Positions 3,045 to 37,588 of a stretch of DNA of 64,000 nucleotides are shown here, one piece after another. Each line of letters opens with the position of its first letter. The first letter of the stretch is position 1. The translations under genes and the position numbers were made by a program. A model generated the notes under the pieces. The model saw only the letters and a program-made list of their open reading frames with translations. It was not told where the DNA came from and ran no database searches. Location of the stretch: NCBI GenBank assembly GCA_965116585.1, contig OZ220714.1:2309247-2373246 (forward strand), read 5' to 3'. Source of the stretch: Gammaproteobacteria bacterium (GTDB lineage: Bacteria > Pseudomonadota > Gammaproteobacteria > Eutrophobiales > Eutrophobiaceae).

Positions 3045-3139
3045 CACAAACACAGATTAGCACAGATTATTTTGGTCTTTTCGAGTAAAACCTTGCGCAG
3101 AATGACCAGGAAATTTATGCGTCATTTGCGAACCTCTTC

Positions 3140-3170
3140 CGTCATTCCCGCGCAGGCGGGAATCCAGTGA
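3140..3170. repeat. REP-like palindrome (same family as 29911, 37493, 62669)
   Basis: CGTCATTCCCGCGCAGGCGGGAATCCAGTGA. Confidence 0.6.
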
Positions 3171-3259
3171 AAAAAACACCCCGAAGGGATACTTTGTAAT
3201 GTGTGGCAACTATCAAAAATAATCTGTGTTAATCTGTGTTTGCGCTGTGGATAATCCTT

Positions 3260-3868: not shown

Positions 3869-4756
3869 TTGAAACCGGCAAACTTCAATTACACCCGAGC
3901 GGAGTCCGTAGACCAGGCCCTTGACCTGCTTGAGCGGCACGCGGGCGCCGCCAAAATCCTGGCAGGCGGGCAGAGCCTGAACCCCACCCTGAACATGCGC
4001 CTGTCGGCGCCGGACCTGCTTATCGACATCAATGACCTGGATGAACTCAAGGGAATAGCACTGGCGGAGGGTATGCTTCACGTCGGCGCCCTGACCCGGC
4101 ACGCGCAACTCGAGCAATCCGAACTGGTCGCCACCCACGCCCCCCTGCTGAAAAAAGCCATCGGACACGTGGCCCATGCAGCCATACGCAACCGCGGCAC
4201 AATCGGTGGCAACGTAGCCCTGGCCGACCCCGCTTCGGAACTGCCGGCCTGCTGCGTCGCCCTGGATGCGCGCATGACCATCCGCAACAGGCAGGGTTTC
4301 AGGATTACGCCGGCCCGTGATTATTTCCGGGACCTGTACGAGACGGACTTGCAGGAAAATGAGTTGCTGACGTCGATCGCCTTTCCTGTTGCCGGGGATA
4401 CGACTGTCTGCGCGTTCCGTGAATTTGTCAGGCGCAAAGGGGATTTCGCTTCGACCGGCCTGGCGGTCAATGCCGAGTTTGAAAACGGCATGTTCACTTC
4501 CTTCAGCCCGGTATTCTTTGCCGTTGCCAATACTCCTGTCCTGGCTACCGGTGTTGCGCAACGACTGGTGCATAAAAGCCTGACCGCGGAACAGGTCGGC
4601 CAGGCGCTCGACGCCGTTGCCGGGATTGAAATAACCGGTGACACTTATATGAGCACGGAGATGAAACAACACCTGGCAAGGCATTACCTGGGCGAGGTGA
4701 TAGAGGAACTGTATAAGGAAGATTGTGCTACTGGATTCCCGCCTGCGCGGGAATGA
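3869..4756 (+). CDS. FAD-binding medium subunit of a xanthine dehydrogenase/CO dehydrogenase family enzyme (CoxM-like)
   Basis: TTG start preceded by a GAGGTG ribosome-binding site. ...AKILAGGQSLNPTLNMRLSAPDLLIDINDL...GALTRHAQL...AIRNRGTIGGN... are molybdopterin-dehydrogenase FAD-binding motifs. Confidence 0.85.
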   Translation: MKPANFNYTRAESVDQALDLLERHAGAAKILAGGQSLNPTLNMRLSAPDLLIDINDLDELKGIALAEGMLHVGALTRHAQLEQSELVATHAPLLKKAIGHVAHAAIRNRGTIGGNVALADPASELPACCVALDARMTIRNRQGFRITPARDYFRDLYETDLQENELLTSIAFPVAGDTTVCAFREFVRRKGDFASTGLAVNAEFENGMFTSFSPVFFAVANTPVLATGVAQRLVHKSLTAEQVGQALDAVAGIEITGDTYMSTEMKQHLARHYLGEVIEELYKEDCATGFPPARE

Positions 4757-4765
4757 CGAGTGAAA

Positions 4766-5245
4766 ATGCAAGGCAAAAATGAACAATATATCTCCGTTGC
4801 GATAACGGTCAACGGAGCGCTCATAGAGGCGGACATCCCCGCGCGGGAAAGCCTGGCGGATTTTCTGCGCCAGCAGGTGGGATTGACCGGCACCCACGTC
4901 GGCTGCGAACAAGGCGTCTGCGGCGCCTGCACGGTCAGGTTTGACGGTCGCATCGCCCGTTCCTGCCTGACCCTGGCGGCGCAAGCGCACGGCCACCGCG
5001 TCGACACCATCGAGGGGATGACCGACAGCGGCGAACTGGCCGCCTTGCAAGCGGCCTTCCTCAAACATAACGCCGCACAGTGCGGGTTCTGCACGCCCGG
5101 CATGTTGATTAGCGCAGCGGAATACCTGGCCGCCTCCGGCAGCGCCGAGCGGCACTTGATCCGGGAATTCCTGTCCGGCAATTACTGCCGCTGTACGGGC
5201 TACCATGCCATCGTCGATGCCATTGCAGAGGTTGCCGATGCCTGA
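4766..5245 (+). CDS. (2Fe-2S)-binding small subunit (CoxS-like)
   Basis: GCEQGVCGACTV...CGFCTPGM... are the two [2Fe-2S] cysteine clusters of Mo-hydroxylase small subunits. Confidence 0.9.
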   Translation: MQGKNEQYISVAITVNGALIEADIPARESLADFLRQQVGLTGTHVGCEQGVCGACTVRFDGRIARSCLTLAAQAHGHRVDTIEGMTDSGELAALQAAFLKHNAAQCGFCTPGMLISAAEYLAASGSAERHLIREFLSGNYCRCTGYHAIVDAIAEVADA

Positions 5246-7592
5246 TCCATTCATCGACGATTCGGGTCTTGCCAGACCGGACGCCGGTAGATTCATACAC
5301 GGCCGGGGTCGTTATCTTGATGATATCTCGCTCACCGGCATGCTCCACGTGGTTTATGTACGCAGCCCCTATGCCCATGCAAAAATCGACGGCGTTGATA
5401 CTTCAAAAGCACGGGAAGTCTGTGACGTCAGCCACGTTTTCACCGGACAGGACCTGGCCGCGGTCTGCCAACCCTGGACTGCGCAACTGACCAACCTGGG
5501 TGAGATGAAGACCGCGCCGCAGGCGGCCATGCCTACGGACATCGTCAGGTGGCAGGGTGAGCCGGTTGCCGCGGTGGTGGCGAATTCCAGGGCTATCGCC
5601 GAGGACGCGGCGGAACTGGTCGAGGTGGATTACACAGAATTACCGGCAGTCACGGATCCGGAGGCGGCGCGCAGCACAGATGCGCCCCTGGTCCATCCGC
5701 AACTGGGGACTAACGTTGCCTGGTCGATCAACATCGATACGGGTGAGGTGGAGGAAGCCATGGCCGCGGCCGACCTGGTGATAGAGAGGATGTTCGAGGT
5801 CAACCGGCAGACCGGCGTCACGCTGGAACCACGCGGCGCCATCGCCGACTACGATCCGTCCCGGCGTTACCTGACCCTGTACCTGACCAGTCAGGTGCCC
5901 CATATCCAGCGCTATATCTACGCCCGGCAACTGGGGCTGAAGGAAGCGAACGTGCGCATCATCTGTCCGGATATCGGTGGCGGCTTCGGGCTGAAACTGC
6001 ACGTGTATTCCGACGAGATCGCCACTGCCGCGATCAGCATGCTGATACGGCGGCCGGTAAAATTCGTCGCCGACAGGCTGGAATCGTTTGTGTCCGACAT
6101 CCATGCCCGCGGGCACCGGGTAAAAGCCCGCATGGGAGTTAATCGCGACGGGACCATCCAGGCCCTGGAAGTGGACGACCTGGCCGGCGCCGGGCCGTAT
6201 CTTATCCATCCCCGCACCAGTGTAATCGAACCCCTGCTGGTCGCCATCTGTACGCCGCTGGCCTACGACCTCAAGCACTACCGCGCGGTTGCCTCGCTGG
6301 TGTACCAGAACAAGGTCAGCACCGGCCAGTACCGCGGCGTGGGTATGCCCGTTGCCAGCCTGGTGGCGGAAGGGATGGTCGATGCGGCTGCCAGGGCGAT
6401 CGGTCTGGACCAGGTCGAGATCAGGAAACGCAACCTGTACCGGGACGACGCCTACCCCGTTACCGCTATCTCCGGTGAATATCTCGAATGCCTGTCCCAG
6501 CAGGCCTCCCTGGACAAGTTGTTGGGAATGATGGACTACGACGGGTTGCGCGAGGAACGTGACGCGAGGCGCAATCAAGACGCCTACAGGGGTATCGGTC
6601 TGGCCACCGTGGTGGAGGGAACGTCGCCCAGTCCCGCGCTGTATGCCGCGGGTGGCGCGCCGATCAGTTCCCGGGACGCCTGTACCCTGCGCCTGGAAGC
6701 GGACGGCAACATCTCCTGCGCCACCGGCCTGACCGACCAGGGCCAGGGCGGCGAGGCCGTGGTGACGTCCATCATCTCCGCGGTGCTGGGTGTGGCGCGG
6801 GACGAGATCAACGTCGTCATGGGCGATACCGCCACCACACCGTTCGGTGGCGGCACCTGGGCATCCAGGGGCACGGCCATCGCCGGCGAGGCGTGCCTGC
6901 TGGCGGCGAGGGAGATGCGGGAAAAGATACTGGAAGTGGCCGCCGTAGCTCACGAACAACCCGCGGACATACTCACCATTCGGGCCGGCAACATCATCAA
7001 CCTGGAGACGGACGAGCAGGTCTCATCTCTGGCGGCAATCGGCAACACCGTCCATTTCAACACCCACACCCTGCCCAGGGACCTGGAACCGGAACTGATT
7101 GTCACCCGCCATTACAGCCAGCGCGAACAACTCATGGTGTATGCCAACTGCGCGCTCGGCGTTTCCCTGGAAGTGGACGTGAACACCGGCCTGGTGACGC
7201 TGCACAAAGTCTGGGCAGTGGATGACTGCGGCCGCATCATCAACGAAAAACTGGTAGTGGAACAACTGCGCGGCAGCATCGTCCAGGGCATCGGTTCCAG
7301 CCTGTATGAAGAGTGCATCTACGACGCAGCCGGCCAGTTGCTGAACGGCAACATGTTCGAGTACCTGCTACCCATGGCCGGCGAAATGCCCGACATCGAG
7401 GTAGAACACATCGAAACCCCCACCAAAGCCACCCAACTAGGCGCCAAAGGCTGCGGCGAAGCCGGCATCATCGCCATCTGCGGCGCCATCATGAACGGGA
7501 TTAACGACGCGCTGGAGCCTTTCGGGGTGGAGGTGACTTCACAGCCGTTTACGCCGGAGAAGATATTGAGGGTGTTGGGGAGGGTTGGTTAA
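5238..7592 (+). CDS. Molybdopterin-binding large subunit of a xanthine dehydrogenase family enzyme (CoxL-like; probably not a form I CO dehydrogenase)
   Basis: ~785 aa with aldehyde oxidase/xanthine DH a/b hammerhead and Mo-binding regions. The start overlaps the coxS-like stop (ATGCCTGA). The form I CODH active-site signature AYRCSFR is not visible; GQYRGVG is found instead. The last 214 bp are duplicated at 20783..20996. Confidence 0.85.
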   Translation: MPDPFIDDSGLARPDAGRFIHGRGRYLDDISLTGMLHVVYVRSPYAHAKIDGVDTSKAREVCDVSHVFTGQDLAAVCQPWTAQLTNLGEMKTAPQAAMPTDIVRWQGEPVAAVVANSRAIAEDAAELVEVDYTELPAVTDPEAARSTDAPLVHPQLGTNVAWSINIDTGEVEEAMAAADLVIERMFEVNRQTGVTLEPRGAIADYDPSRRYLTLYLTSQVPHIQRYIYARQLGLKEANVRIICPDIGGGFGLKLHVYSDEIATAAISMLIRRPVKFVADRLESFVSDIHARGHRVKARMGVNRDGTIQALEVDDLAGAGPYLIHPRTSVIEPLLVAICTPLAYDLKHYRAVASLVYQNKVSTGQYRGVGMPVASLVAEGMVDAAARAIGLDQVEIRKRNLYRDDAYPVTAISGEYLECLSQQASLDKLLGMMDYDGLREERDARRNQDAYRGIGLATVVEGTSPSPALYAAGGAPISSRDACTLRLEADGNISCATGLTDQGQGGEAVVTSIISAVLGVARDEINVVMGDTATTPFGGGTWASRGTAIAGEACLLAAREMREKILEVAAVAHEQPADILTIRAGNIINLETDEQVSSLAAIGNTVHFNTHTLPRDLEPELIVTRHYSQREQLMVYANCALGVSLEVDVNTGLVTLHKVWAVDDCGRIINEKLVVEQLRGSIVQGIGSSLYEECIYDAAGQLLNGNMFEYLLPMAGEMPDIEVEHIETPTKATQLGAKGCGEAGIIAICGAIMNGINDALEPFGVEVTSQPFTPEKILRVLGRVG
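7379..7592 (+). repeat. Left copy of a 214-bp direct repeat (3' end of the CoxL-like gene); putative attL of the inserted island
   Basis: 97% identical to 20783..20996; the first ~130 bp are identical and about 6 mismatches cluster in the last 80 bp. Confidence 0.85.
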
Positions 7593-7733: not shown

Positions 7734-8108
7734 CTACCATTCGCCCTTCAGAGTTGGTGATTGTCTGGTGTTGTCGTGGTTAACGGCCATTTCCAACTGT
7801 TCGACCAGATCAGGCAGATCGTTCTGTATAGTGTCCCAGAGAATATCGTCGTCGATATTGTGGTAACCATGAACAAGACGATGTCGCATGCCTATGATGT
7901 TATCGAAATCGATATACGCCAGTTCATGTCGTTTTGCTTTTGACACCTGATAGGCCGCTTCACACAGAATTTCTACAAGCCTTACCATTGCCAGCGAATA
8001 CATACGGTCGGAATCCAGATCCTCCCGAGTTTTCCCCTCGCTTAGCTCAATGGCTTCCTGCGCAGCATCCAGCATGTGCAATAGCCGGGTATTATCATCA
8101 ATGAACAT
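7734..8108 (-). CDS. hepT: HepT-like (DUF86) toxin of a HepT/MNT type II toxin-antitoxin pair
   Basis: RX4HXY motif (GMRHRLVHGYHNID), ~124 aa, immediately downstream of an MNT nucleotidyltransferase. Confidence 0.8.
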   Translation of the reverse strand: MFIDDNTRLLHMLDAAQEAIELSEGKTREDLDSDRMYSLAMVRLVEILCEAAYQVSKAKRHELAYIDFDNIIGMRHRLVHGYHNIDDDILWDTIQNDLPDLVEQLEMAVNHDNTRQSPTLKGEW

Positions 8109-8153: not shown

Positions 8154-8468
8154 TTATGGCGTGGACAAATCGACCAGAATATGTGCATCTTTCACCACCC
8201 TGTCCTGAATATATGGACTCAGATCCCCCATTGTGCGTAAATCAATTTTGCGTTGTCCAAAAAAGAATGACAGGGCTTTTTCCAACCCAACTACTCTGAA
8301 TAGTCCGACTCGAGCGCCAGGTCTGAACTTGACCAACAGATCAATGTCGCTGTCAGGACCGAAATCATTACGCAGCGCTGACCCATACACAGCCAGTTTA
8401 AGGATATCGTTGTTCCGGCAGAACGTTGTAATTTGTTTACTGTCTGGAAGAATCACTTGCGGGTTCAT
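8154..8468 (-). CDS. mnt: MNT nucleotidyltransferase antitoxin (cognate of HepT)
   Basis: GSX10DXD nucleotidyltransferase motif (YGSALRNDFGPDSDIDLLV), 104 aa, upstream of hepT in the same operon. Confidence 0.8.
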   Translation of the reverse strand: MNPQVILPDSKQITTFCRNNDILKLAVYGSALRNDFGPDSDIDLLVKFRPGARVGLFRVVGLEKALSFFFGQRKIDLRTMGDLSPYIQDRVVKDAHILVDLSTP

Positions 8469-8537
8469 GCCTTGCCTGTTTTCGGAATAGTAATATAAGG
8501 ATTTTAACCACGGAGTATTTTATTCGCAATGGACACC

Positions 8538-8656
8538 CTTGGATACCGCTGAGATCTGCTACCATTAACTCCACAAAAAAGAACAGCCGCGTTAGCGGCG
8601 GCTGTCGGGCCGTGGCTCCCTTCCTGTTATGACAAGGTATGGGCATACCAACGGTG
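8538..8656. repeat. Copy 1 of a ~120-170-bp intergenic repeat family (hairpin ACAGCCGC-GTTAGCG-GCGGCTGT preceded by an A-run, plus a TGTCATGACA-like palindrome)
   Basis: Near-identical to 26986..27157 and 13600..13729. Copy 1 diverges after ...CCAACGGTG and abuts the IS66-like insertion. Confidence 0.7.
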
Positions 8657-8794
8657 TTGTTACTTATAACTCAGTATAAGATTTAGCGCCGTGTCAAGGA
8701 AAAAACAGGAAAAATTGTAACTACTCACCCCCTCCCCACTAATTCTACCTGAATTTGCAACAAGGGGTGCTTGACATCATAGTTTTCTGGCGCT

Positions 8795-9472
8795 ATGGTA
8801 GGCGCCATGGGGCATGCGTATCTCGGTTCGAAAGCGACGACGGGGCTGTGCCAACCGTTGATTGCCATGATGCCGCCGCACAGTGTGTACATTGAGACAC
8901 ACTTGGGCGGCGGGGCGATTATGCGGCGCAAGCCGGCGGCGCTGCGCAACATTGGCATTGACATGGATGGGCGGGCGCTGTCGGCGTTCGAGTGTGCGTA
9001 TCCGGTGGAGCTGGTGCAGGGGTGTTGCCACCGGTTTTTAGCGGACTTTCCGTTCGACGGCACGGAGCTGGTGTACAGCGACCCGCCGTATTTGCAGCGT
9101 GCCCGCAAGTCGGGGCGGGGTTATCGGCACGACTACGAGGAGGGCGACCACGAGGCCTTGCTGGCGCTGCTCACGGGGTTGCCGTGTGCGGTGATGCTAT
9201 CGGGGTATCCCTCGGCGTTGTATGACGAGCGGTTGTGTGGCTGGCGCTGCGTGTCGCTGCAGGTGATGAATCAGGCCGGGGTGGTCACGGAGAAGGTATG
9301 GTTCAACTTTGCCCCGGACCGGGTGCACTGGGTGCGTTATGCGGGGCGCAACTTCACGCACCGCCAGCAGGTCAAGCGCAAGGCGGCGAGCTGGGGCCGG
9401 CGGTATCGGGAGTTGCCGCCGGCGGAGCGCCTGGCGGTGCTGGCGGCGATGATGGCGGTGGAGGCGGAGTGA
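8795..9472 (+). CDS. Dam-family N6-adenine DNA methyltransferase (cargo of the IS66-like element)
   Basis: HLGGGAIM (AdoMet-binding FxGxG) followed by the YSDPPY catalytic motif, the D12-class order. The stop lies 4 bp before the transposase start. Confidence 0.75.
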   Translation: MVGAMGHAYLGSKATTGLCQPLIAMMPPHSVYIETHLGGGAIMRRKPAALRNIGIDMDGRALSAFECAYPVELVQGCCHRFLADFPFDGTELVYSDPPYLQRARKSGRGYRHDYEEGDHEALLALLTGLPCAVMLSGYPSALYDERLCGWRCVSLQVMNQAGVVTEKVWFNFAPDRVHWVRYAGRNFTHRQQVKRKAASWGRRYRELPPAERLAVLAAMMAVEAE

Positions 9473-9476
9473 GGGC

Positions 9477-10976
9477 ATGGCGAGCGTGAACAAGACCTCG
9501 CTGCGCACGGAGTTCGAGGCCATCAAGACGCGCTTTGCGGCGCTGTGTGCGGAGGGCAAGCTGAGTCCCGAGGGCCGCGCCCTGTTCGAGGCGATGCTGC
9601 TGCTGTTCGAGTTGCTGCTGGCGGTGTTGATGGAGAAGGCCACGCCGAAGGGAACGCATAACTCGGGCCTGCCGAGTTCCCAAACCGGGCCGGACGAGAC
9701 CGCACGCCGGCAGACCGGCGCCAAGGGCAAGGGGCCGGACCACCGTGCCGCACGGGGCGAGTCAACCCGCGTGGTGGTCGAGACCCGCACCGCCGCGGTC
9801 ACCGAGTGCCGGGCCTGCGGGCGCGACCTCAAGGACCTCCACCCCAGCGGCCACGAGCGGCGCGTGAAGGTCGATATCGTCTTCGAGACAACCGAACTGA
9901 CCGTGAAGGCCGACATCAAGACCTGCCCGCGCTGCCGTACCGAGACCCGCGGGCCGTTTCCGGACACGATGCCGGGCCCCTTGCAGTACGGCCACGGCAT
10001 CGTGGCCTTCGCCACGCACCTGCTCACCGCACAGATGCTCTCACTGCGGCGCGCCGCTCAGACCCTCAAGGCGCTGACCGGGCGCACCATCGCCGAGGCG
10101 ACCTTGCTGGCTTGGCTCTCACGCCTGCACGAGGCCCTGGCCGAGTGGGAGGGGGCCGCCATTGAGCGCCTGCTCGCCGAGCCGGTGCTGCACGCCGATG
10201 AAACCGGCCTGCGCATCGACCGTAAGACCCACTGGCTGCACAGCGTCAGCGCCGGGAACCTGACCGTAAAGCGCGGCCACCGCAAACGGGGCCGCGAGGC
10301 CCTCAAGGACATCGGCATCGTCCCCCGCTATGGCGGTATCCTCGTCCACGACCGCTGGGCCAGCTACTTCGCCTGGGAGAACTGTGAACACGCCCTGTGC
10401 GGCAGCCACCTGCTGCGCGACCTGGCCTTCATCGAAGAGGCCCACGGCCATACCTGGGCAACACGTCTGGGCAACCTCCTGCTCACTACCTGCCGCACCG
10501 TGCGTGACCACCCGAACAAAGCGCTCAGCGACCCCGACTACAAAGCCCTGCGCACACGCTACCGCACCCTCCTCACACAGGCCAGACGGGAACTCCCCAC
10601 ACCCCCTCAGCGTCTCACCGGACAACGCGGACGTATCGCCAAATCCGATGCGCAAAACCTGCATGAAGCCCTCGTCAAGTATGAAACCGACGTGCTGCGC
10701 TTCGCCCGCAACCCCCAGGTCCCGTTCACCAATAACCGCGCCGAGCGCGACCTCCGCATGGCCAAGGTCAAGCAGAAAGTCGCCGGGTGCTTCCGTACCC
10801 CCCACTACGCCGCCGCCTACTGCCGCATCTCCAGCTACTTGCAGTCCATGGCGCTGCAGGGCTACAATCCCCTCACCGCCATCGAGATAGCGCTCAACGG
10901 CAATGCCGCCTCCATGGTAGAGAAACCACCCCAGAATAACCCGGACGACCAGGACCAGGATAAGGGGGGCGAGTAG
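9477..10976 (+). CDS. IS66 family transposase (TnpC-like: zinc ribbon plus DDE domain)
   Basis: CRACGRDL...CPRCRT zinc-finger; ...HADETGLRI...WLHSV... and ...FTNNRAERDLRMAKVKQKVAGCFRT... are IS66 TnpC signature blocks. Confidence 0.9.
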   Translation: MASVNKTSLRTEFEAIKTRFAALCAEGKLSPEGRALFEAMLLLFELLLAVLMEKATPKGTHNSGLPSSQTGPDETARRQTGAKGKGPDHRAARGESTRVVVETRTAAVTECRACGRDLKDLHPSGHERRVKVDIVFETTELTVKADIKTCPRCRTETRGPFPDTMPGPLQYGHGIVAFATHLLTAQMLSLRRAAQTLKALTGRTIAEATLLAWLSRLHEALAEWEGAAIERLLAEPVLHADETGLRIDRKTHWLHSVSAGNLTVKRGHRKRGREALKDIGIVPRYGGILVHDRWASYFAWENCEHALCGSHLLRDLAFIEEAHGHTWATRLGNLLLTTCRTVRDHPNKALSDPDYKALRTRYRTLLTQARRELPTPPQRLTGQRGRIAKSDAQNLHEALVKYETDVLRFARNPQVPFTNNRAERDLRMAKVKQKVAGCFRTPHYAAAYCRISSYLQSMALQGYNPLTAIEIALNGNAASMVEKPPQNNPDDQDQDKGGE

Positions 10977-11036
10977 TTACGAAAAATTTTAATTTGAGTA
11001 GTAATTTAGCTTCACCATGTAGCGCGAGGTGCAACT

Positions 11037-11297
11037 ATGGTAGCCTTTGAAAATCTCTTAAAAACAGAGTCCGATTTCTATGAACGTGAGCAACACAATC
11101 TTTTGGTAAAGTACCCCAACAGGGTTTTGTTAATACACGGTGATCATGTTGAAGGGGATTTTGATTCCGGGAATGCGGCCATATCAGAAGGAGTTCGCAA
11201 GTTTGGTACAGGTCCGTTTTTAGCCAGGAGAGCCGGGGAAGAAGAGCCTGTTTTTTTCAGTGCCAGCATTAACGTTGAGTCTGTAAAATGTCGGTAA
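11037..11297 (+). CDS. 86-aa conserved hypothetical protein (paralog A of the 23007..23267 protein)
   Basis: ~80% aa identity with the ORF at 23007..23267. The ~30 bp upstream (…GTAGCGCGAGGTGCAACTATGG) is also conserved in both copies. No recognisable domain. Confidence 0.6.
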   Translation: MVAFENLLKTESDFYEREQHNLLVKYPNRVLLIHGDHVEGDFDSGNAAISEGVRKFGTGPFLARRAGEEEPVFFSASINVESVKCR

Positions 11298-11352
11298 GAG
11301 TGCAACGGACAGCATTAATCTGGCGATACAGGAAGAATTGGCTGCCAGGTAC

Positions 11353-12447
11353 TTATTTGTTGGATTTCCTGCGATTGCAACCCTTGCATAGCATCTGACA
11401 GTTATCCTCGTTTGTCTTGCCACCCTCCGACCAAGGGGTGATGTGGTCAGCCTCCATGTCCACGATCTCAAACACCTTTGCGCATACCTTGCATATCCCC
11501 TTTTGAATCTCGAACGTCCTCTGCTTCATGGCATCGGAGAAGGCTCGGATGTTGAGATGTTTTTCCTCGCCAGTGAGGAGATACGGGTAGATACCCGCCT
11601 TCTTCGTCACATCGTCGTCGATCATCAGGCGGCCAACCTCGACTTCCAGTCTTTCGGGATCCAGTTTCTCGTTCTTGAGTTGCTTGTAAAGCCCACCCCA
11701 ATCCACTCCCTTCATTTGTGTGCGGTAGTTCGGAAAAACCGCCTCCACCCGGTTGATCACCGCCTGGAAGTGACTCCACAAAGCAGTTGCGGTCTTGTCG
11801 TGCTGATGCACGGCCATATACTGCTCGACCGCCTGGTCCTCGTCCTTGATCCATTGGATTGCGGTTTCGAGGTACTCCTGGCGGTCCGCCCTCCCATTCA
11901 CATAACGGCTGCCGATTGCATAAGCCGGGCAGGTGGCCCCCTTCCTGCTGAAATGCCGCTTTGCATCGGATACCCACGGGCCAGCATAAACCGCGTTCCG
12001 CAACTCCTGGTCGGTCAGCCGCTCGCCTGCAATATTGATGATCCTGAACCAAGCCAGCTTTTCGCTGGCGCTTCCCTCGCAGACATAAACCTGCAACGTG
12101 TAGTTAAGAATCCGATCCTGCTCGTCATCTTGCAGGTTATGGAAATACCGCCCGTCAAGGGAGTAGTCGCCTTCCACATACTGTGCGACTGAGATCGTGC
12201 GCTGCTGGCCGTCGATGACCTCATATGTTCCGTCTTCGCGTAGTGCCCAATACATCACATTGAGCGGAAAGCCCTTGTTGATCGTCTCGATCACAGCATC
12301 GCGTTGCTTGTCCTTATAGACGAACTCGCGCTGAAACGGCGGGCGGATGTCGAGTTTACCGCCATAGCCGCGCACCCCGCCTTCGCCGTCGTCGATGTAG
12401 CCCTTCACAAGGTCGCGGACAGTGACTTTCGTCAGAGCAATTTTCAT
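11353..12447 (-). CDS. DUF262 (ParB-like, DGQQR) N-terminal domain fused to a C-terminal HNH endonuclease
   Basis: EVIDGQQRT is the DUF262 motif. The C-terminus HITPWSEGGKTNEDNCQMLCKGCNRRKSN is an HNH motif. A 4-bp overlap with the upstream MTase gene indicates co-transcription. Confidence 0.75.
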   Translation of the reverse strand: MKIALTKVTVRDLVKGYIDDGEGGVRGYGGKLDIRPPFQREFVYKDKQRDAVIETINKGFPLNVMYWALREDGTYEVIDGQQRTISVAQYVEGDYSLDGRYFHNLQDDEQDRILNYTLQVYVCEGSASEKLAWFRIINIAGERLTDQELRNAVYAGPWVSDAKRHFSRKGATCPAYAIGSRYVNGRADRQEYLETAIQWIKDEDQAVEQYMAVHQHDKTATALWSHFQAVINRVEAVFPNYRTQMKGVDWGGLYKQLKNEKLDPERLEVEVGRLMIDDDVTKKAGIYPYLLTGEEKHLNIRAFSDAMKQRTFEIQKGICKVCAKVFEIVDMEADHITPWSEGGKTNEDNCQMLCKGCNRRKSNK

Positions 12448-13505
12448 CGCGACGGCATTCTCTTAATCAGAATGCGTCTATAGGTGCGTTTGTATTGGCC
12501 TCCCACCTTGATAACCCCTCCTTCCCCGTTCAGGTCGTTATAGTTAGTCGCATCTGCGGACGTGTATTTTTTCGTTTTCAGGCCGTAGCGGTCGTCCCTG
12601 TCTGTTATCCCCATGACTTCAAACTGCCCCGGGTTGTGCTTATCCAGAAACGTAATCGGCACCCCCATCGCCCCGTCCCAATCTATCGGGATTTCGGCGG
12701 TCTTGTCCACGTTGATCGCGTCGTAGTTGTCGTAGGCCGGGTATTCCTCCGGCGAGTAGAGCTTGTAGAGGATCAACTCCTCGTGGCGCTTGGCATGGTC
12801 GAGATTGGTGAACCAGGCCGCGTTGCCCAATCGTCCTTTGATAACTCCCTCGACAACTCTGTAGGCGCTCCCCTCCTTTGCGGTCGCCTCCAATTCCCGC
12901 GCGTATCCCTCCGGCACATCGAACAGCATGTCTTGGCCCTTCGGGGTGACGCCAAGCCACATCGTGCCGTCCTTGATTAGGGGGAAAATCTCCTTGTAGG
13001 TGACGGCGTTCTGACTCCCGACGATCAGGAACTTCTTGCCGTACTGCACCAGTTGGGCGACGTATTCGCGGAACAGCGAAAACGGCGGATTGGTCACCAC
13101 GATGTCCGCCTGCTTCAGAAGCTCAATGCACTCCGCGCTGCGGAAATCGCCGTCCCCCTCAAACTCCCGAATTCCGATATCCCCGACTTCTGGCACCCTG
13201 CCGCCCTTCGCGTTCCCCTTGTATTCGAGCCATATCGCCCGCTCCGAATCGTGACGGCTGAACAAGTCACGTTCCTGGTTCCTGTAGCACGCGGTGATGA
13301 GCGTCTTCAGACCCAGGCGCTCAAAGTTGTATGAGAAATAATGAAAGAAGTTGGAGACGCGGGGGTCGTCGCAGTTACAGTACACAACCTTGTCCCGGAA
13401 ATGTCCAGTGTAGTGGCGCAGCTCGTTTTCGATATCGGAAAGCTGCGTGTAGAACTCGTCGTTCTTTTGCCGTTTGGCGTTGCGTAAGTTTTCATTCAGA
13501 GACAT
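12444..13505 (-). CDS. Adenine-specific DNA methyltransferase, EcoRI-methylase-like family
   Basis: N-terminal ...NDEFYTQLSDIENEL...VVYCNCDDPRVSNFFHYF... block and NPPF catalytic motif (VVTNPPFSL). The family assignment is from memory of M.EcoRI-like sequences. Confidence 0.65.
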   Translation of the reverse strand: MSLNENLRNAKRQKNDEFYTQLSDIENELRHYTGHFRDKVVYCNCDDPRVSNFFHYFSYNFERLGLKTLITACYRNQERDLFSRHDSERAIWLEYKGNAKGGRVPEVGDIGIREFEGDGDFRSAECIELLKQADIVVTNPPFSLFREYVAQLVQYGKKFLIVGSQNAVTYKEIFPLIKDGTMWLGVTPKGQDMLFDVPEGYARELEATAKEGSAYRVVEGVIKGRLGNAAWFTNLDHAKRHEELILYKLYSPEEYPAYDNYDAINVDKTAEIPIDWDGAMGVPITFLDKHNPGQFEVMGITDRDDRYGLKTKKYTSADATNYNDLNGEGGVIKVGGQYKRTYRRILIKRMPSR

Positions 13506-13599
13506 GGGTTTGCTCCCGAACCAAGCCCGTTGTCGACGACTAGCTCCCGAGATTTATACCGCCCCAAACTTCGATACTCTACTACACAATTCCCCAAAA

Positions 13600-13729
13600 A
13601 AAGAACAGCCGCGTTAGCGGCGGCTGTCGGGCCGTGGCTCCCTCCTGTCATGACAAGGCATGGGCACACCAACGGTGAGGTTGAGCAAAGTCTATTATAA
13701 CACCCGACACTGTGTCAATGATTTGAATC
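13600..13729. repeat. Copy 2 of the intergenic repeat family
   Basis: ...CCCCAAAAAAAGAACAGCCGCGTTAGCGGCGGCTGTCGGGCCGTGGCTCCC...GTCAATGATTTGAATC is almost identical to 27020..27157. Confidence 0.7.
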
Positions 13730-20782: not shown

Positions 20783-20996
20783 CGGCGAAATGCCCGACAT
20801 CGAGGTAGAACACATCGAAACCCCCACCAAAGCCACCCAACTAGGCGCCAAAGGCTGCGGCGAAGCCGGCATCATCGCCATCTGCGGCGCCATCATGAAC
20901 GGGATTAACGATGCGCTGGAACCGTTCGGGGCGGAGGTGACTTCACAGCCGTTTACGCCGGAGAAGATATTGAGGGTGTTGGGGAAGGTTGGTTAG
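20783..20996 (+). repeat. Right copy of the 214-bp direct repeat; orphan 3' fragment of the CoxL-like gene; putative attR
   Basis: Encodes MPDIEVEHIETPTKATQLGAKGCGEAGIIAICGAIMNGINDALEPFGAEVTSQPFTPEKILRVLGKVG, the last 68 aa of the CoxL-like protein with 3 substitutions. Confidence 0.85.
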
Positions 20997-22786: not shown

Positions 22787-23006
22787 ATGCATTGATTCTG
22801 TCTATCGACAAATAAAACGATTAAAAAGCGACCTTAGGTGATGGCTTCTCTCAGAGGTAAAATAAATTACATAGGGCAATTTAATTCAAAGCAGGTGGCC
22901 CGCTTGGAAAAATTTTTCCTGATTGCTGATTCCGATTTCAACGTGAACGCGGATTCCGGGAAAGTGAACACCGATTTAGCTTGACCACGTAACGCGAGGT
23001 GCAACT

Positions 23007-23267
23007 ATGGCAGCTTTTGAAAATCTCTTAAAAACAGAGTCCGATTTCTACGGACGCGAGCAACACAATCTATTGGCGAAGTACCCCAACAGGGTTTTGT
23101 TGATACACGGTGATCGTGTTGAAGGAGATTTTGATTCCGAGGAAGCGGCAATTACAGAAGGGGTACGCAAGTTTGGCGTAGGTCCGTTTTTAGTCAGGAG
23201 AGCCGGAGAACAAGAACCTGTTTTTTTCAGCGCCAGCATTAGCGTTGGGCCTGTAAAATGTTGGTAA
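23007..23267 (+). CDS. 86-aa conserved hypothetical protein (paralog B)
   Basis: MAAFENLLKTESDFYGREQHNLLAKYPNRVLLIHGDRVEGDFDS... is ~80% identical to the 11037..11297 product. Confidence 0.6.
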   Translation: MAAFENLLKTESDFYGREQHNLLAKYPNRVLLIHGDRVEGDFDSEEAAITEGVRKFGVGPFLVRRAGEQEPVFFSASISVGPVKCW

Positions 23268-23360
23268 GGTGCGACAAGGATCGTTATTGTACACAGAACT
23301 GGATGAACCTAGGTTCAAGGATTATTTACATTATTTTTTTGTCGAAGGAATCTACATAAC

Positions 23361-26985: not shown

Positions 26986-27157
26986 CCTTGGATATCGCTG
27001 AGATATGCTACCATTAGCTCCACAAAAAAGAACAGCCGCGTTAGCGGCGGCTGTCGGGCCGTGGCTCCCTTCCTGTCATGACAAGGCATGGGCACACCAA
27101 CGGTGAGGTTGAGCAAAGTCTATTATAACACCCGACACTGTGTCAATGATTTGAATC
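26986..27157. repeat. Copy 3 (longest) of the intergenic repeat family
   Basis: CCTTGGATATCGCTGAGATATGCTACCATTAGCTCCACAAAAAAGAACAGCCGCGTTAGCGGCGGCTGTCGGG...GATTTGAATCA. Confidence 0.7.
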
Positions 27158-29808: not shown

Positions 29809-29910
29809 TAGCGGGATACTAACATGGATGGACGGGACAGAATCATACTTTCAGTTTCCATTGATGAAAATGGCCAGCTTGCCAATAAACCTTGTTCATT
29901 CTGGCTTCAT

Positions 29911-30018
29911 TCGTCATTCCGGGCTTGACCCGGAATCCAGTCAAACAAGCAACTCCTCATAAAGTGCGCAAACAACGCGGGGGGTTCTACTGGATTCCTG
30001 CTTTCGCAAATGACGAAC
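29911..30018. repeat. Pair of inverted REP-like palindromes (CGTCATTCC-hairpin-GGAATCCAGT family)
   Basis: 29911..29945 TCGTCATTCCGGGCTTGACCCGGAATCCAGT, with the inverse orientation at 29988..30018. The same family occurs at 3140..3170, 37493..37588 and 62669..62703. Confidence 0.7.
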
Positions 30019-37477: not shown

Positions 37478-37492
37478 TTATCCAGCGCCACG

Positions 37493-37588
37493 TTCGTCAT
37501 TCCTGCGAATGCAGGAATCCAGTGAAAAAACATTCCTTATAAGGAATTTGGCTGTCTACTGGATTCCTGTATTCACGGGAATGACGAA
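37493..37588. repeat. Pair of inverted REP-like palindromes with a central perfect palindrome ATTCCTTATAAGGAAT
   Basis: CGTCATTCCTGCGAATGCAGGAATCCAGTGA ... CTACTGGATTCCTGTATTCACGGGAATGACG. Confidence 0.7.

Follow-up and report, generated by a model that had tools for sequence, protein, structure and literature searches.

A Upf31-family, Dam-fold gene as a candidate self-repressor at the head of an IS66-family insertion sequence

Insertion sequences (IS) are usually seen as a transposase gene with its ends, sometimes accompanied by a regulator derived from the transposase. In IS1 and the IS3 family a small promoter-proximal product, InsA and OrfA respectively, limits the synthesis of the transposase and hence the copy number, while the transposase promoters of IS10 and IS50 are under Dam control and depend on the Dam of the host. 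Here we describe an IS66-family element in a stretch of 64,000 nucleotides from a gammaproteobacterial contig (OZ220714.1, positions 2,309,247 to 2,373,246; hereafter the window). Its first gene, an open reading frame (ORF) that we call ORF1, codes for a protein of the methyltransferase fold with its own putative operator, unlike InsA and OrfA, which are transposase-derived DNA-binding domains acting on the element ends; also unlike these regulators, the cassette that comprises ORF1 was acquired and is common to unrelated element families. With a probability of about 0.6, we read ORF1 as the self-repressing first gene of a two-gene operon, which throttles the transposase of an ISBst12-like, transposition-competent element.

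The ISBst12 subgroup of the IS66 family never carries tnpA or tnpB (PMC12898284, PMC8024623), and the Geobacillus and Deinococcus IS66-family elements that have been classed in it consist of a single ORF (PMC8024623, PMC12898284). The ends of one member of the group, ISDge4, are GTGACTACTCAGCA / GTAACTGCTCAGCA, and its duplication is 8 bp long (PMC12898284). Extra coding DNA between the left end and the transposase gene, as seen in the present element, is also found in the IS231 subgroup of IS4 (PMC2266710); however, the passengers of that subgroup are variable and sporadic, whereas ORF1 is a fixed feature of a deep clade, shows more conservation than the transposase and provides the latter's promoter. 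As to the protein, the sole experimentally studied homologue of ORF1 is Upf31. In restriction digests, the Upf31 of pBP136 failed to bring GATC methylation back to a dam mutant (Elg et al. 2025, PMC11997246), and its overexpression in the methylase-free E. coli ER2796 gave no signal in sequencing by the single-molecule real-time (SMRT) method (PMC11997246). The 68-bp fragment upstream of upf31 is an active promoter that full-length Upf31 represses about 50-fold, the repression requiring the C-terminal region of the protein (PMC11997246). A conserved inverted repeat, CAGCATCG, has been proposed as the Upf31 operator (PMC11997246); in front of the upf31 gene of pB3 it takes the form CAGCATCG-N10-CGATGCTG.

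The element of the window has the following parts:

8717-10980: intact IS66-family element of 2,264 bp, with terminal inverted repeats, target-site duplication and two genes
8709-8716, no strand: left copy of the target-site duplication, GAAAAATT, identical to 10981-10988
10981-10988, no strand: right copy of the target-site duplication, GAAAAATT, read directly
8717-8732, plus strand: left terminal inverted repeat, GTAACTACTCACCCCC, matching the right end at 15/16 positions
10965-10980, minus strand: right terminal inverted repeat, GGGGGCGAGTAGTTAC, reverse complement GTAACTACTCGCCCCC
8771-8799, plus strand: sigma-70-like promoter, with the -35 box TTGACA at 8771-8776, a 17-nt spacer and the -10 box TATGGT at 8794-8799; 10/12 consensus positions
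8775-8800, no strand: candidate operator, an inverted repeat of CATCATAG (8775-8782), N10 and CTATGGTA (8793-8800), overlapping the -35 and -10 boxes
8807-9472, plus strand: ORF1, a Upf31-family Dam-fold protein of 221 aa (225 aa if counted from ATG 8795)
9477-10976, plus strand: IS66-family (ISBst12-like) DDE transposase of 499 aa, full-length in comparison to its homologues (90% identity, 100% coverage)

Both ends read GTAACTACTC(A/G)CCCCC, and the 16-mer GTAACTACTCRCCCCC occurs in only two places in the window, namely the ends of the element, with 0.02 occurrences expected. The transposase matches the IS66 family transposase model NF033517 (242.6 bits, cut-off 180, E=7e-72) and PF03050 (DDE_Tnp_IS66; E=2.1e-38, covering profile positions 3-282 of 284). 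An earlier reading of the DNA made from the letters alone (the sequence-only reading) had seen here an intact IS66-family element with terminal inverted repeats and an exact 8-bp duplication, and all of this stands. The transposase gene begins 4 nt past the stop codon of ORF1 (TGAGGGCATG). A frameshift fusion of the two genes was considered and rejected, as their frames differ and a stop codon plus 4 nt lie between them; the only hint of one, a 236-aa database protein (P0129; L103, 3001-3711) that is 61% identical to ORF1 and also matches PF03050, may be a fusion or a frameshifted copy. Between them, the ends and the two ORFs take up the whole element, leaving no space for tnpA or tnpB. Its G+C content is 0.64-0.70, against 0.45-0.50 in the surrounding stretch. 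The GC skew (window 8800-10999) is about +0.24 in ORF1 and flips to about -0.27 in the 3' half of the transposase gene, which is consistent with separate origins of the element's two halves. Two metagenome scans returned no match to the reconstructed uninterrupted target, and no paralogous empty site was seen in the window; since no empty site was found, the case for insertion rests on the terminal inverted repeats, the duplication and the multi-copy relatives described below. A DNA search with the element against plasmids returned just two short, weak matches.

The nearest annotated transposases, at 31-37% identity, come from Geobacillus (named ISGst1 and ISGka4 by the Prokaryotic Genome Annotation Pipeline), Deinococcus, Bacillus and Anoxybacillus, and the ends of ISDge4 are very close to the GTAACTACTCACCCCC of the window and to the GTAACTGCTCACCCGA of locus L106. 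The element shares with the ISBst12 subgroup a DDE_Tnp_IS66 transposase, ends of the form GTAACT(A/G)CTC, an 8-bp duplication and the lack of tnpA and tnpB; it does not show the canonical IS66-group arrangement with tnpA and tnpB upstream of tnpC. While the annotated transposases and the published ISDge4 ends relate it to the ISBst12 group, it is distant from the named members (at most 37% identity) and departs from their single-ORF form, in that a second gene, conserved in its clade and equipped with a promoter of its own, is placed between the left end and the transposase. Because the transposase and the ends are ISBst12-like and this subgroup is naturally devoid of tnpA and tnpB, we regard ORF1 as an addition to an ISBst12-like element in which no gene was replaced; the sequence-only reading, which had the methyltransferase standing instead of tnpA and tnpB, is not supported on this point. 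In the open-access literature on IS66 elements with methyltransferases, passenger genes, sponges or ISBst12, no description of this two-gene architecture was found.

The longest reading frame of ORF1, at 8795-9472, is 225 aa long and holds both HLGGGAIM and DPPY. Since the -10 box at 8794-8799 overlaps ATG 8795 and most homologues start 2-3 residues before a conserved Y, the true start is probably ATG 8807 (221 aa), and the mRNA is possibly leaderless. By itself, ORF1 falls under the cut-offs of both PF02086 (E=0.017, 15.3 bits, cut-off 22) and TIGR00571 (E=2.6e-4, 20.8 bits, cut-off 114.85), and a single-sequence search against the PDB sequences gave nothing meaningful. A family profile was needed, and the enzymes that it recovered are DpnM (E=2.4e-9), E. 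coli Dam (1.5e-5) and T4 Dam (0.025). These matches span the N-terminal and DPPY regions and skip the target-recognition domain of about 100 residues (in DpnM, residues ~83-182), with ~55 residues separating motif I from DPPY in ORF1. ORF1 also matches the PHROG 'DNA methyltransferase' family (2.6e-20) and the PADLOC MTase_II model (3.6e-18). Its AlphaFold model (predicted local distance difference test, pLDDT, 89.4; predicted template modelling score, pTM, 0.83) has a methyltransferase fold, and the best Foldseek matches of this model in the PDB are structures of E. coli Dam. The D12-class (alpha-group N6-adenine) enzymes Dam, DpnM and T4 Dam thus share with ORF1 the Rossmann methyltransferase fold and, in the same order, the N-terminal xGxK, the ExFxGGG motif I and the DPPY motif IV. 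They differ from it in being 260-285 aa long with the target-recognition domain between motif I and DPPY, whereas the 221 aa of ORF1 are without this domain; moreover, ORF1 remains under the Pfam and TIGRFAM thresholds, and GATC specificity is excluded for its homologue Upf31. Hence, the gene ending 4 nt before the transposase is a real but remote kin of Dam and DpnM with conserved motifs, which agrees with its earlier assignment to the D12 class.

In an alignment of 40 diverse homologues, the residues G11, H29, G38, D96, P97, P98, H119, G184 and R190 are invariant and K13, E34, G40 and Y99 nearly so (E34, G40 and Y99 being at least 90% conserved). They constitute the N-terminal GxK motif, motif I (HLGGGA, in the context IETHLGGGA) with its acidic ribose-binding residue, and DPPY, which comprises residues 96-99 in the 225-aa numbering; the catalytic residues are therefore present on alignment. 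The idea that ORF1 might be a divergent TnpA or TnpB was rejected, as it matches no TnpA/TnpB family of Pfam or NCBIfam (tnpB PF05717 included) at E<=0.1, has the methyltransferase fold and retains the catalytic residues. The family is large, with 4,486 database clusters recovered in one search and 5,743 representatives (50% clustering) in another; no close relative of ORF1 was found among the viral contigs of IMG/VR.

Uncultured bacteria abound in proteins with at least 75% identity to ORF1. When one genome per species was scanned, 206 loci were recovered, and the best 80 of these were examined for their host and downstream gene. The hosts of these 80 are mainly metagenome-assembled genomes (MAGs) of Pseudomonadales and other Gammaproteobacteria, with families including Candidatus Poriferihabitaceae, Azotimanducaceae and Rariloculaceae, and with one alphaproteobacterial and one Caldilineaceae MAG as outliers; going by family names and bin labels, the host bacteria are probably marine sponge symbionts. 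Single genomes contain 10-15 ORF1-type loci, and counts of at least 10 per genome are frequent; OY762706 and CBDCDS, for example, have at least 14 copies each. Downstream of ORF1 in the same 80 loci lies an IS66-type transposase (37), a DDE_Tnp_1-type transposase (41), both nearby (1) or the end of the contig (1); that is, ORF1 is inside an insertion sequence in 79/79 loci not cut by a contig end.

Pairwise comparison of copies within genomes defined the boundaries of two kinds of elements. Those of type A are IS66-type, have the ends seen in the window (GTAACTACTC...), measure 2,240-2,340 bp and are flanked by 8-bp duplications; the same terminal inverted repeats and 8-bp duplications bound copies at many sites in other genomes. 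One related gammaproteobacterial MAG additionally has 216-bp miniature inverted-repeat transposable elements (MITEs) with type A ends and 8-bp duplications (L015 1913-2128). The second kind and the part that it shares with type A are:

L057-L064, L066-L092 (e.g. L076 2922-5064): type-B elements, with ends CAGCAGTTCTCATTTTG ... CAAAATGAGAACTGCTG, 9-bp duplications and a length of ~2,130-2,160 bp
8763-9472, plus strand: portable cassette of promoter, operator and ORF1, the sole stretch common to both element types

When the element was compared by blastn to four type-B elements, only its positions 47/53-753 (window 8763/8769-9469) aligned, at ~80% identity, in an alignment that starts slightly upstream of the promoter and ends with the stop of ORF1. 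While the ORF1 of type B is 77-82% identical to that of type A, BLAST finds no similarity between the transposase of type B and the IS66 protein; the matches of this transposase are to DDE_Tnp_1 (PF01609, above the cut-off), to DDE_Tnp_1_assoc and, weakly, to IS4, and its gene starts with a GTG that overlaps the stop codon of ORF1. Type-B copies number at least 14 in one genome, and both element types co-occur in the same genomes (e.g. L049/L090, L082). Promoter, operator and ORF1 are therefore a portable unit that occupies the same place in IS66-type and in DDE_Tnp_1 (IS4/ISAs1-like) elements.

ORF1 is uninterrupted in 91 of 92 loci and its dN/dS of 0.12-0.39 points to purifying selection. 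It evolves more slowly than the transposase: the identities of ORF1 and transposase in pairs of elements are 89 vs 79%, 84 vs 75%, 80 vs 60% and 76 vs 61%. Three relatives of the transposase at 59-62% identity extend this picture, in that two of them are preceded by a 220-aa ORF ending 3-6 nt before their start, and the third by a shorter ORF of 110 aa. Judged by these arrangements, ORF1 belongs to the transposase clade, down to 59% identity, as a fixed, promoter-proximal and, by prediction, translationally coupled component. The description of the gene as cargo, made by the sequence-only reading, fits poorly with this fixed promoter-proximal position, with its slower evolution than the transposase and with the presence of the same cassette in an unrelated family.

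We also observed, on the Sphingobium plasmid pCFD-1-3 (L095 1510-3675), a 49%-identical homologue situated 200 nt upstream of an IS1380-like transposase gene of the ISSp1 family; its protein is found on several sphingomonad plasmids too, and no operator-like repeat was seen upstream of it. This pairing may be coincidental, or it could mark a third case in which the family is associated with an insertion sequence.

The candidate operator is the only CATAG-N9-12-CTATG site in the window, where neither a second copy nor an excess of half-sites was found. Across ~30 distinct variants of both element types, the half-sites, TTGACA and TATGGT are near-fixed (a few have one substitution), while the 10-nt spacer of the operator varies freely; in most of them the ATG lies 7 nt past the -10 box. 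The layout of TTGACA with CAnCAT(A/C)G-N10-C(T/G)ATGnTG, about 7 nt and ATG is shared by both element types and several plasmid homologues, and the latter fall into two classes by their half-sites. The CATCG class includes the repeats of pB3 upf31 and of plasmI of X. albilineans (TTGACAGCATCG-N10-CGATGCTG), as well as those of Pseudomonas pBYT1-1, pPUV-6 and a Citrobacter plasmid (TTGACATCATCG-N10-CGATG, with the ATG 6-8 nt later). The CATAG class, to which the element belongs, includes the closest plasmid relatives, on Xanthomonas oryzae and Lichenicola plasmids (CA(A/C)CATAG-N10-CTATGCTG); in the Lichenicola record no gap separates the repeat from the annotated ATG. Between the two classes both arms of the operator change symmetrically.

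Relatives of ORF1 at 42-52% identity were found on 177 plasmids, of which 131 are conjugative, and include upf31.0 of IncP-1beta. With the Upf31 of pB3, ORF1 shares 43% identity end to end over 220 aa (E=1e-66). The Upf31 proteins of pBP136, R751 and pB3 resemble ORF1 in length, in HLGGG and DPPY and in a basic helical C-terminal region, and their genes likewise have a TTGACA and, behind it, an inverted repeat spaced by 10 nt that overlaps the -10 box. They differ in that Upf31 belongs to the plasmid backbone and is thought to act via KorB, the gene for which is absent from the element; further, the half-site is CATCG for Upf31 but CATAG for the element, and the gene downstream of ORF1 is a transposase.

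The Upf31-family gene also leads a coupled pair, with a gene for a 277-278-aa Ogg-like glycosylase (PF22175) in second place, on several plasmids and metagenome contigs:

L097 1510-3020: Upf31-family/Ogg-like pair
L100 1480-2990: Upf31-family/Ogg-like pair
L101 1480-2990: Upf31-family/Ogg-like pair
L099 1441-3020: Upf31-family/Ogg-like pair
L104 2529-4040: Upf31-family/Ogg-like pair

On the four plasmids this pair adjoins 7-cyano-7-deazaguanine synthase genes, and on three of these also a nitroreductase- or dehydrogenase-like gene; it may be a module for DNA modification or repair.

The fixed promoter-proximal position of ORF1, its pairing with two unrelated transposases, the conserved operator and the behavior of Upf31 together lead us to favor the self-repressor reading. 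According to this, a single promoter at the left end would drive ORF1 from an mRNA that is probably leaderless or nearly so, and the transposase gene that follows after 4 nt would probably be translationally coupled to ORF1. The protein would, most likely as a dimer, occupy the inverted repeat CAnCATAG-N10-CTATGnTG over the -35 and -10 boxes and thereby repress its own synthesis along with that of the transposase. Such a negative feedback would be sensitive to copy number and act in trans on every copy. The same cassette heads the DDE_Tnp_1 elements and, in plasmids, other operons. Repression by ORF1 is the most likely action given the homology to Upf31 and the conservation of the operator; the translational coupling and the leaderless translation are probable.

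Several observations weigh against this. Repression is carried over from a plasmid protein of 43% identity. No repeat was found upstream of the annotated start in four plasmid homologues, those of Sphingobium, Methylomonas, Vibrio and Synechocystis. Part of the conservation of the right half-site can be put down to the -10 box that it overlaps, and a simple dimeric repressor would not usually have half-sites ~18 bp apart from centre to centre. Finally, DPPY is invariant and the S-adenosylmethionine (SAM)-binding residues are conserved among the 40 aligned members, and a pure repressor needs neither. Because these catalytic and SAM-binding residues are conserved, ORF1 probably retains an enzymatic activity, the role of which the repressor reading leaves unexplained.

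The sequence-only reading had put forward the notion of a mobile orphan methyltransferase that could spread an epigenetic mark. In this case ORF1 would be an active N6-adenine methyltransferase acting genome-wide on a short motif, and beneficial cargo through anti-restriction or an epigenetic mark. The conserved motif I, acidic ribose-binding residue and DPPY (with D96, P97 and P98 invariant), the profile matches to DpnM and E. coli Dam, the structural model closest to Dam, the PHROG and PADLOC matches and the purifying selection all fit an enzyme; the 131 conjugative plasmids among the 177 bearing the family, and the location of the element in a defence island beside an EcoRI-like methylase and nuclease pair, also speak for this reading. 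Yet Upf31 neither gave a SMRT signal in methylase-free E. coli nor restored GATC methylation (PMC11997246), the ~100-aa target-recognition domain is missing, with ~55 residues between motif I and DPPY, and the Pfam and TIGRFAM Dam models stay under their cut-offs. A benefit to the host would also leave unexplained the constant promoter-proximal coupling to a transposase and the 10-15 copies per genome. The epigenetic mark has against it a homologue that gave no detectable methylation and represses its own promoter (PMC11997246). ORF1 may have a methyltransferase role, but we consider the orphan methyltransferase doubtful as an account of it.

The conserved catalytic motifs and the negative SMRT result for Upf31 would be reconciled if ORF1 were both a repressor and an enzyme that methylates adenines only in its own long bipartite operator, with methylation or hemimethylation gating the transposase after replication. 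The tested E. coli lacks an operator-like site, the 8+8-nt bipartite site would be essentially absent from a chromosome (there is one in the 64-kb window), and its half-sites overlap the -35 and -10 boxes. This would parallel the Dam control of IS10 and IS50 but be autonomous to the element: such a switch, if real, would be independent of the host methylase and tie transposase expression to replication, and the operator common to both families would entail cross-regulation in the same cell. We hold this reading to be improbable. Even less can be said for ORF1 as a transposition cofactor that replaces the TnpA and TnpB of IS66 and acts on the transposase or the element ends. The tight and conserved pairing with the transposase across its clade, apparently with translational coupling, is what one would expect of a cofactor. 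Nevertheless, the same protein, at 77-82% identity, also serves in type B, where both the transposase and the ends are unrelated, the plasmid homologues precede genes other than transposases, such as that for the Ogg-like glycosylase, the ISBst12-group elements transpose by the transposase alone (PMC12898284), and ORF1 has no similarity to TnpA or TnpB; this makes a cofactor very improbable.

The element lies in a low-G+C island of the defence type, with these features on its two sides:

8154-8468 and 7734-8108: nucleotidyltransferase/HepT toxin-antitoxin pair, left of the element
11353-12447: GmrSD_N/HNH nuclease, right of the element (PADLOC REase_II, E=4e-138 for the methylase-nuclease entry)
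12444-13505: EcoRI-like adenine methylase, right of the element
8537-8708, 13597-13729 and 26986-27157: three copies of a 130-170-bp repeat with an identical core of 47 nt, AAAAAAGAACAGCCGCGTTAGCGGCGGCTGTCGGGCCGTGGCTCCCT

The insertion is at the edge of the first copy of the 130-170-bp repeat. The core of this repeat contains a hairpin that resembles a minus-strand terminator, a plus-strand gene lies downstream of each copy, and no match to the repeat was found in Rfam. As the sequence-only reading had it, the insertion is ~57 bp upstream of an 86-aa gene, the right end being 57 nt before ATG 11037; this gene (within 11004-11298) has an 88% identical paralogue 12 kb away at 22974-23268 and no match in Pfam or NCBIfam. 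A 213-nt direct repeat is present at 7379-7591 and 20783-20995 (98% identity, 13.4 kb apart), one copy overlapping the 3' end of a molybdopterin-dependent dehydrogenase gene (5205-7592). Palindromic units resembling repetitive extragenic palindromes (GTCATTCCCGCGCAGGCGGGAATCCAGTGAAAAAA) are scattered in the window at 3139-3209, 4730-4759, 29890-30017 and 37481-37588, and the same unit makes up the interior of the 216-bp MITEs (L015 1913-2128) with the terminal inverted repeats and 8-bp duplications of the element.

Two unrelated families of insertion sequences have as their fixed front part a foreign and putatively self-regulated cassette of promoter and gene, and each of these families has proliferated to at least 10 copies per genome in uncultured marine bacteria. 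If the action that we propose for ORF1 is right, the cassette would be a portable, host-independent governor of copy number, through which two element families regulate each other. For the Upf31 family, which is poorly understood, these elements also provide a second natural data set of very large size. Thousands of members of the family are annotated as DNA adenine methylases while the one tested member showed none of this activity; such annotations may need caution.

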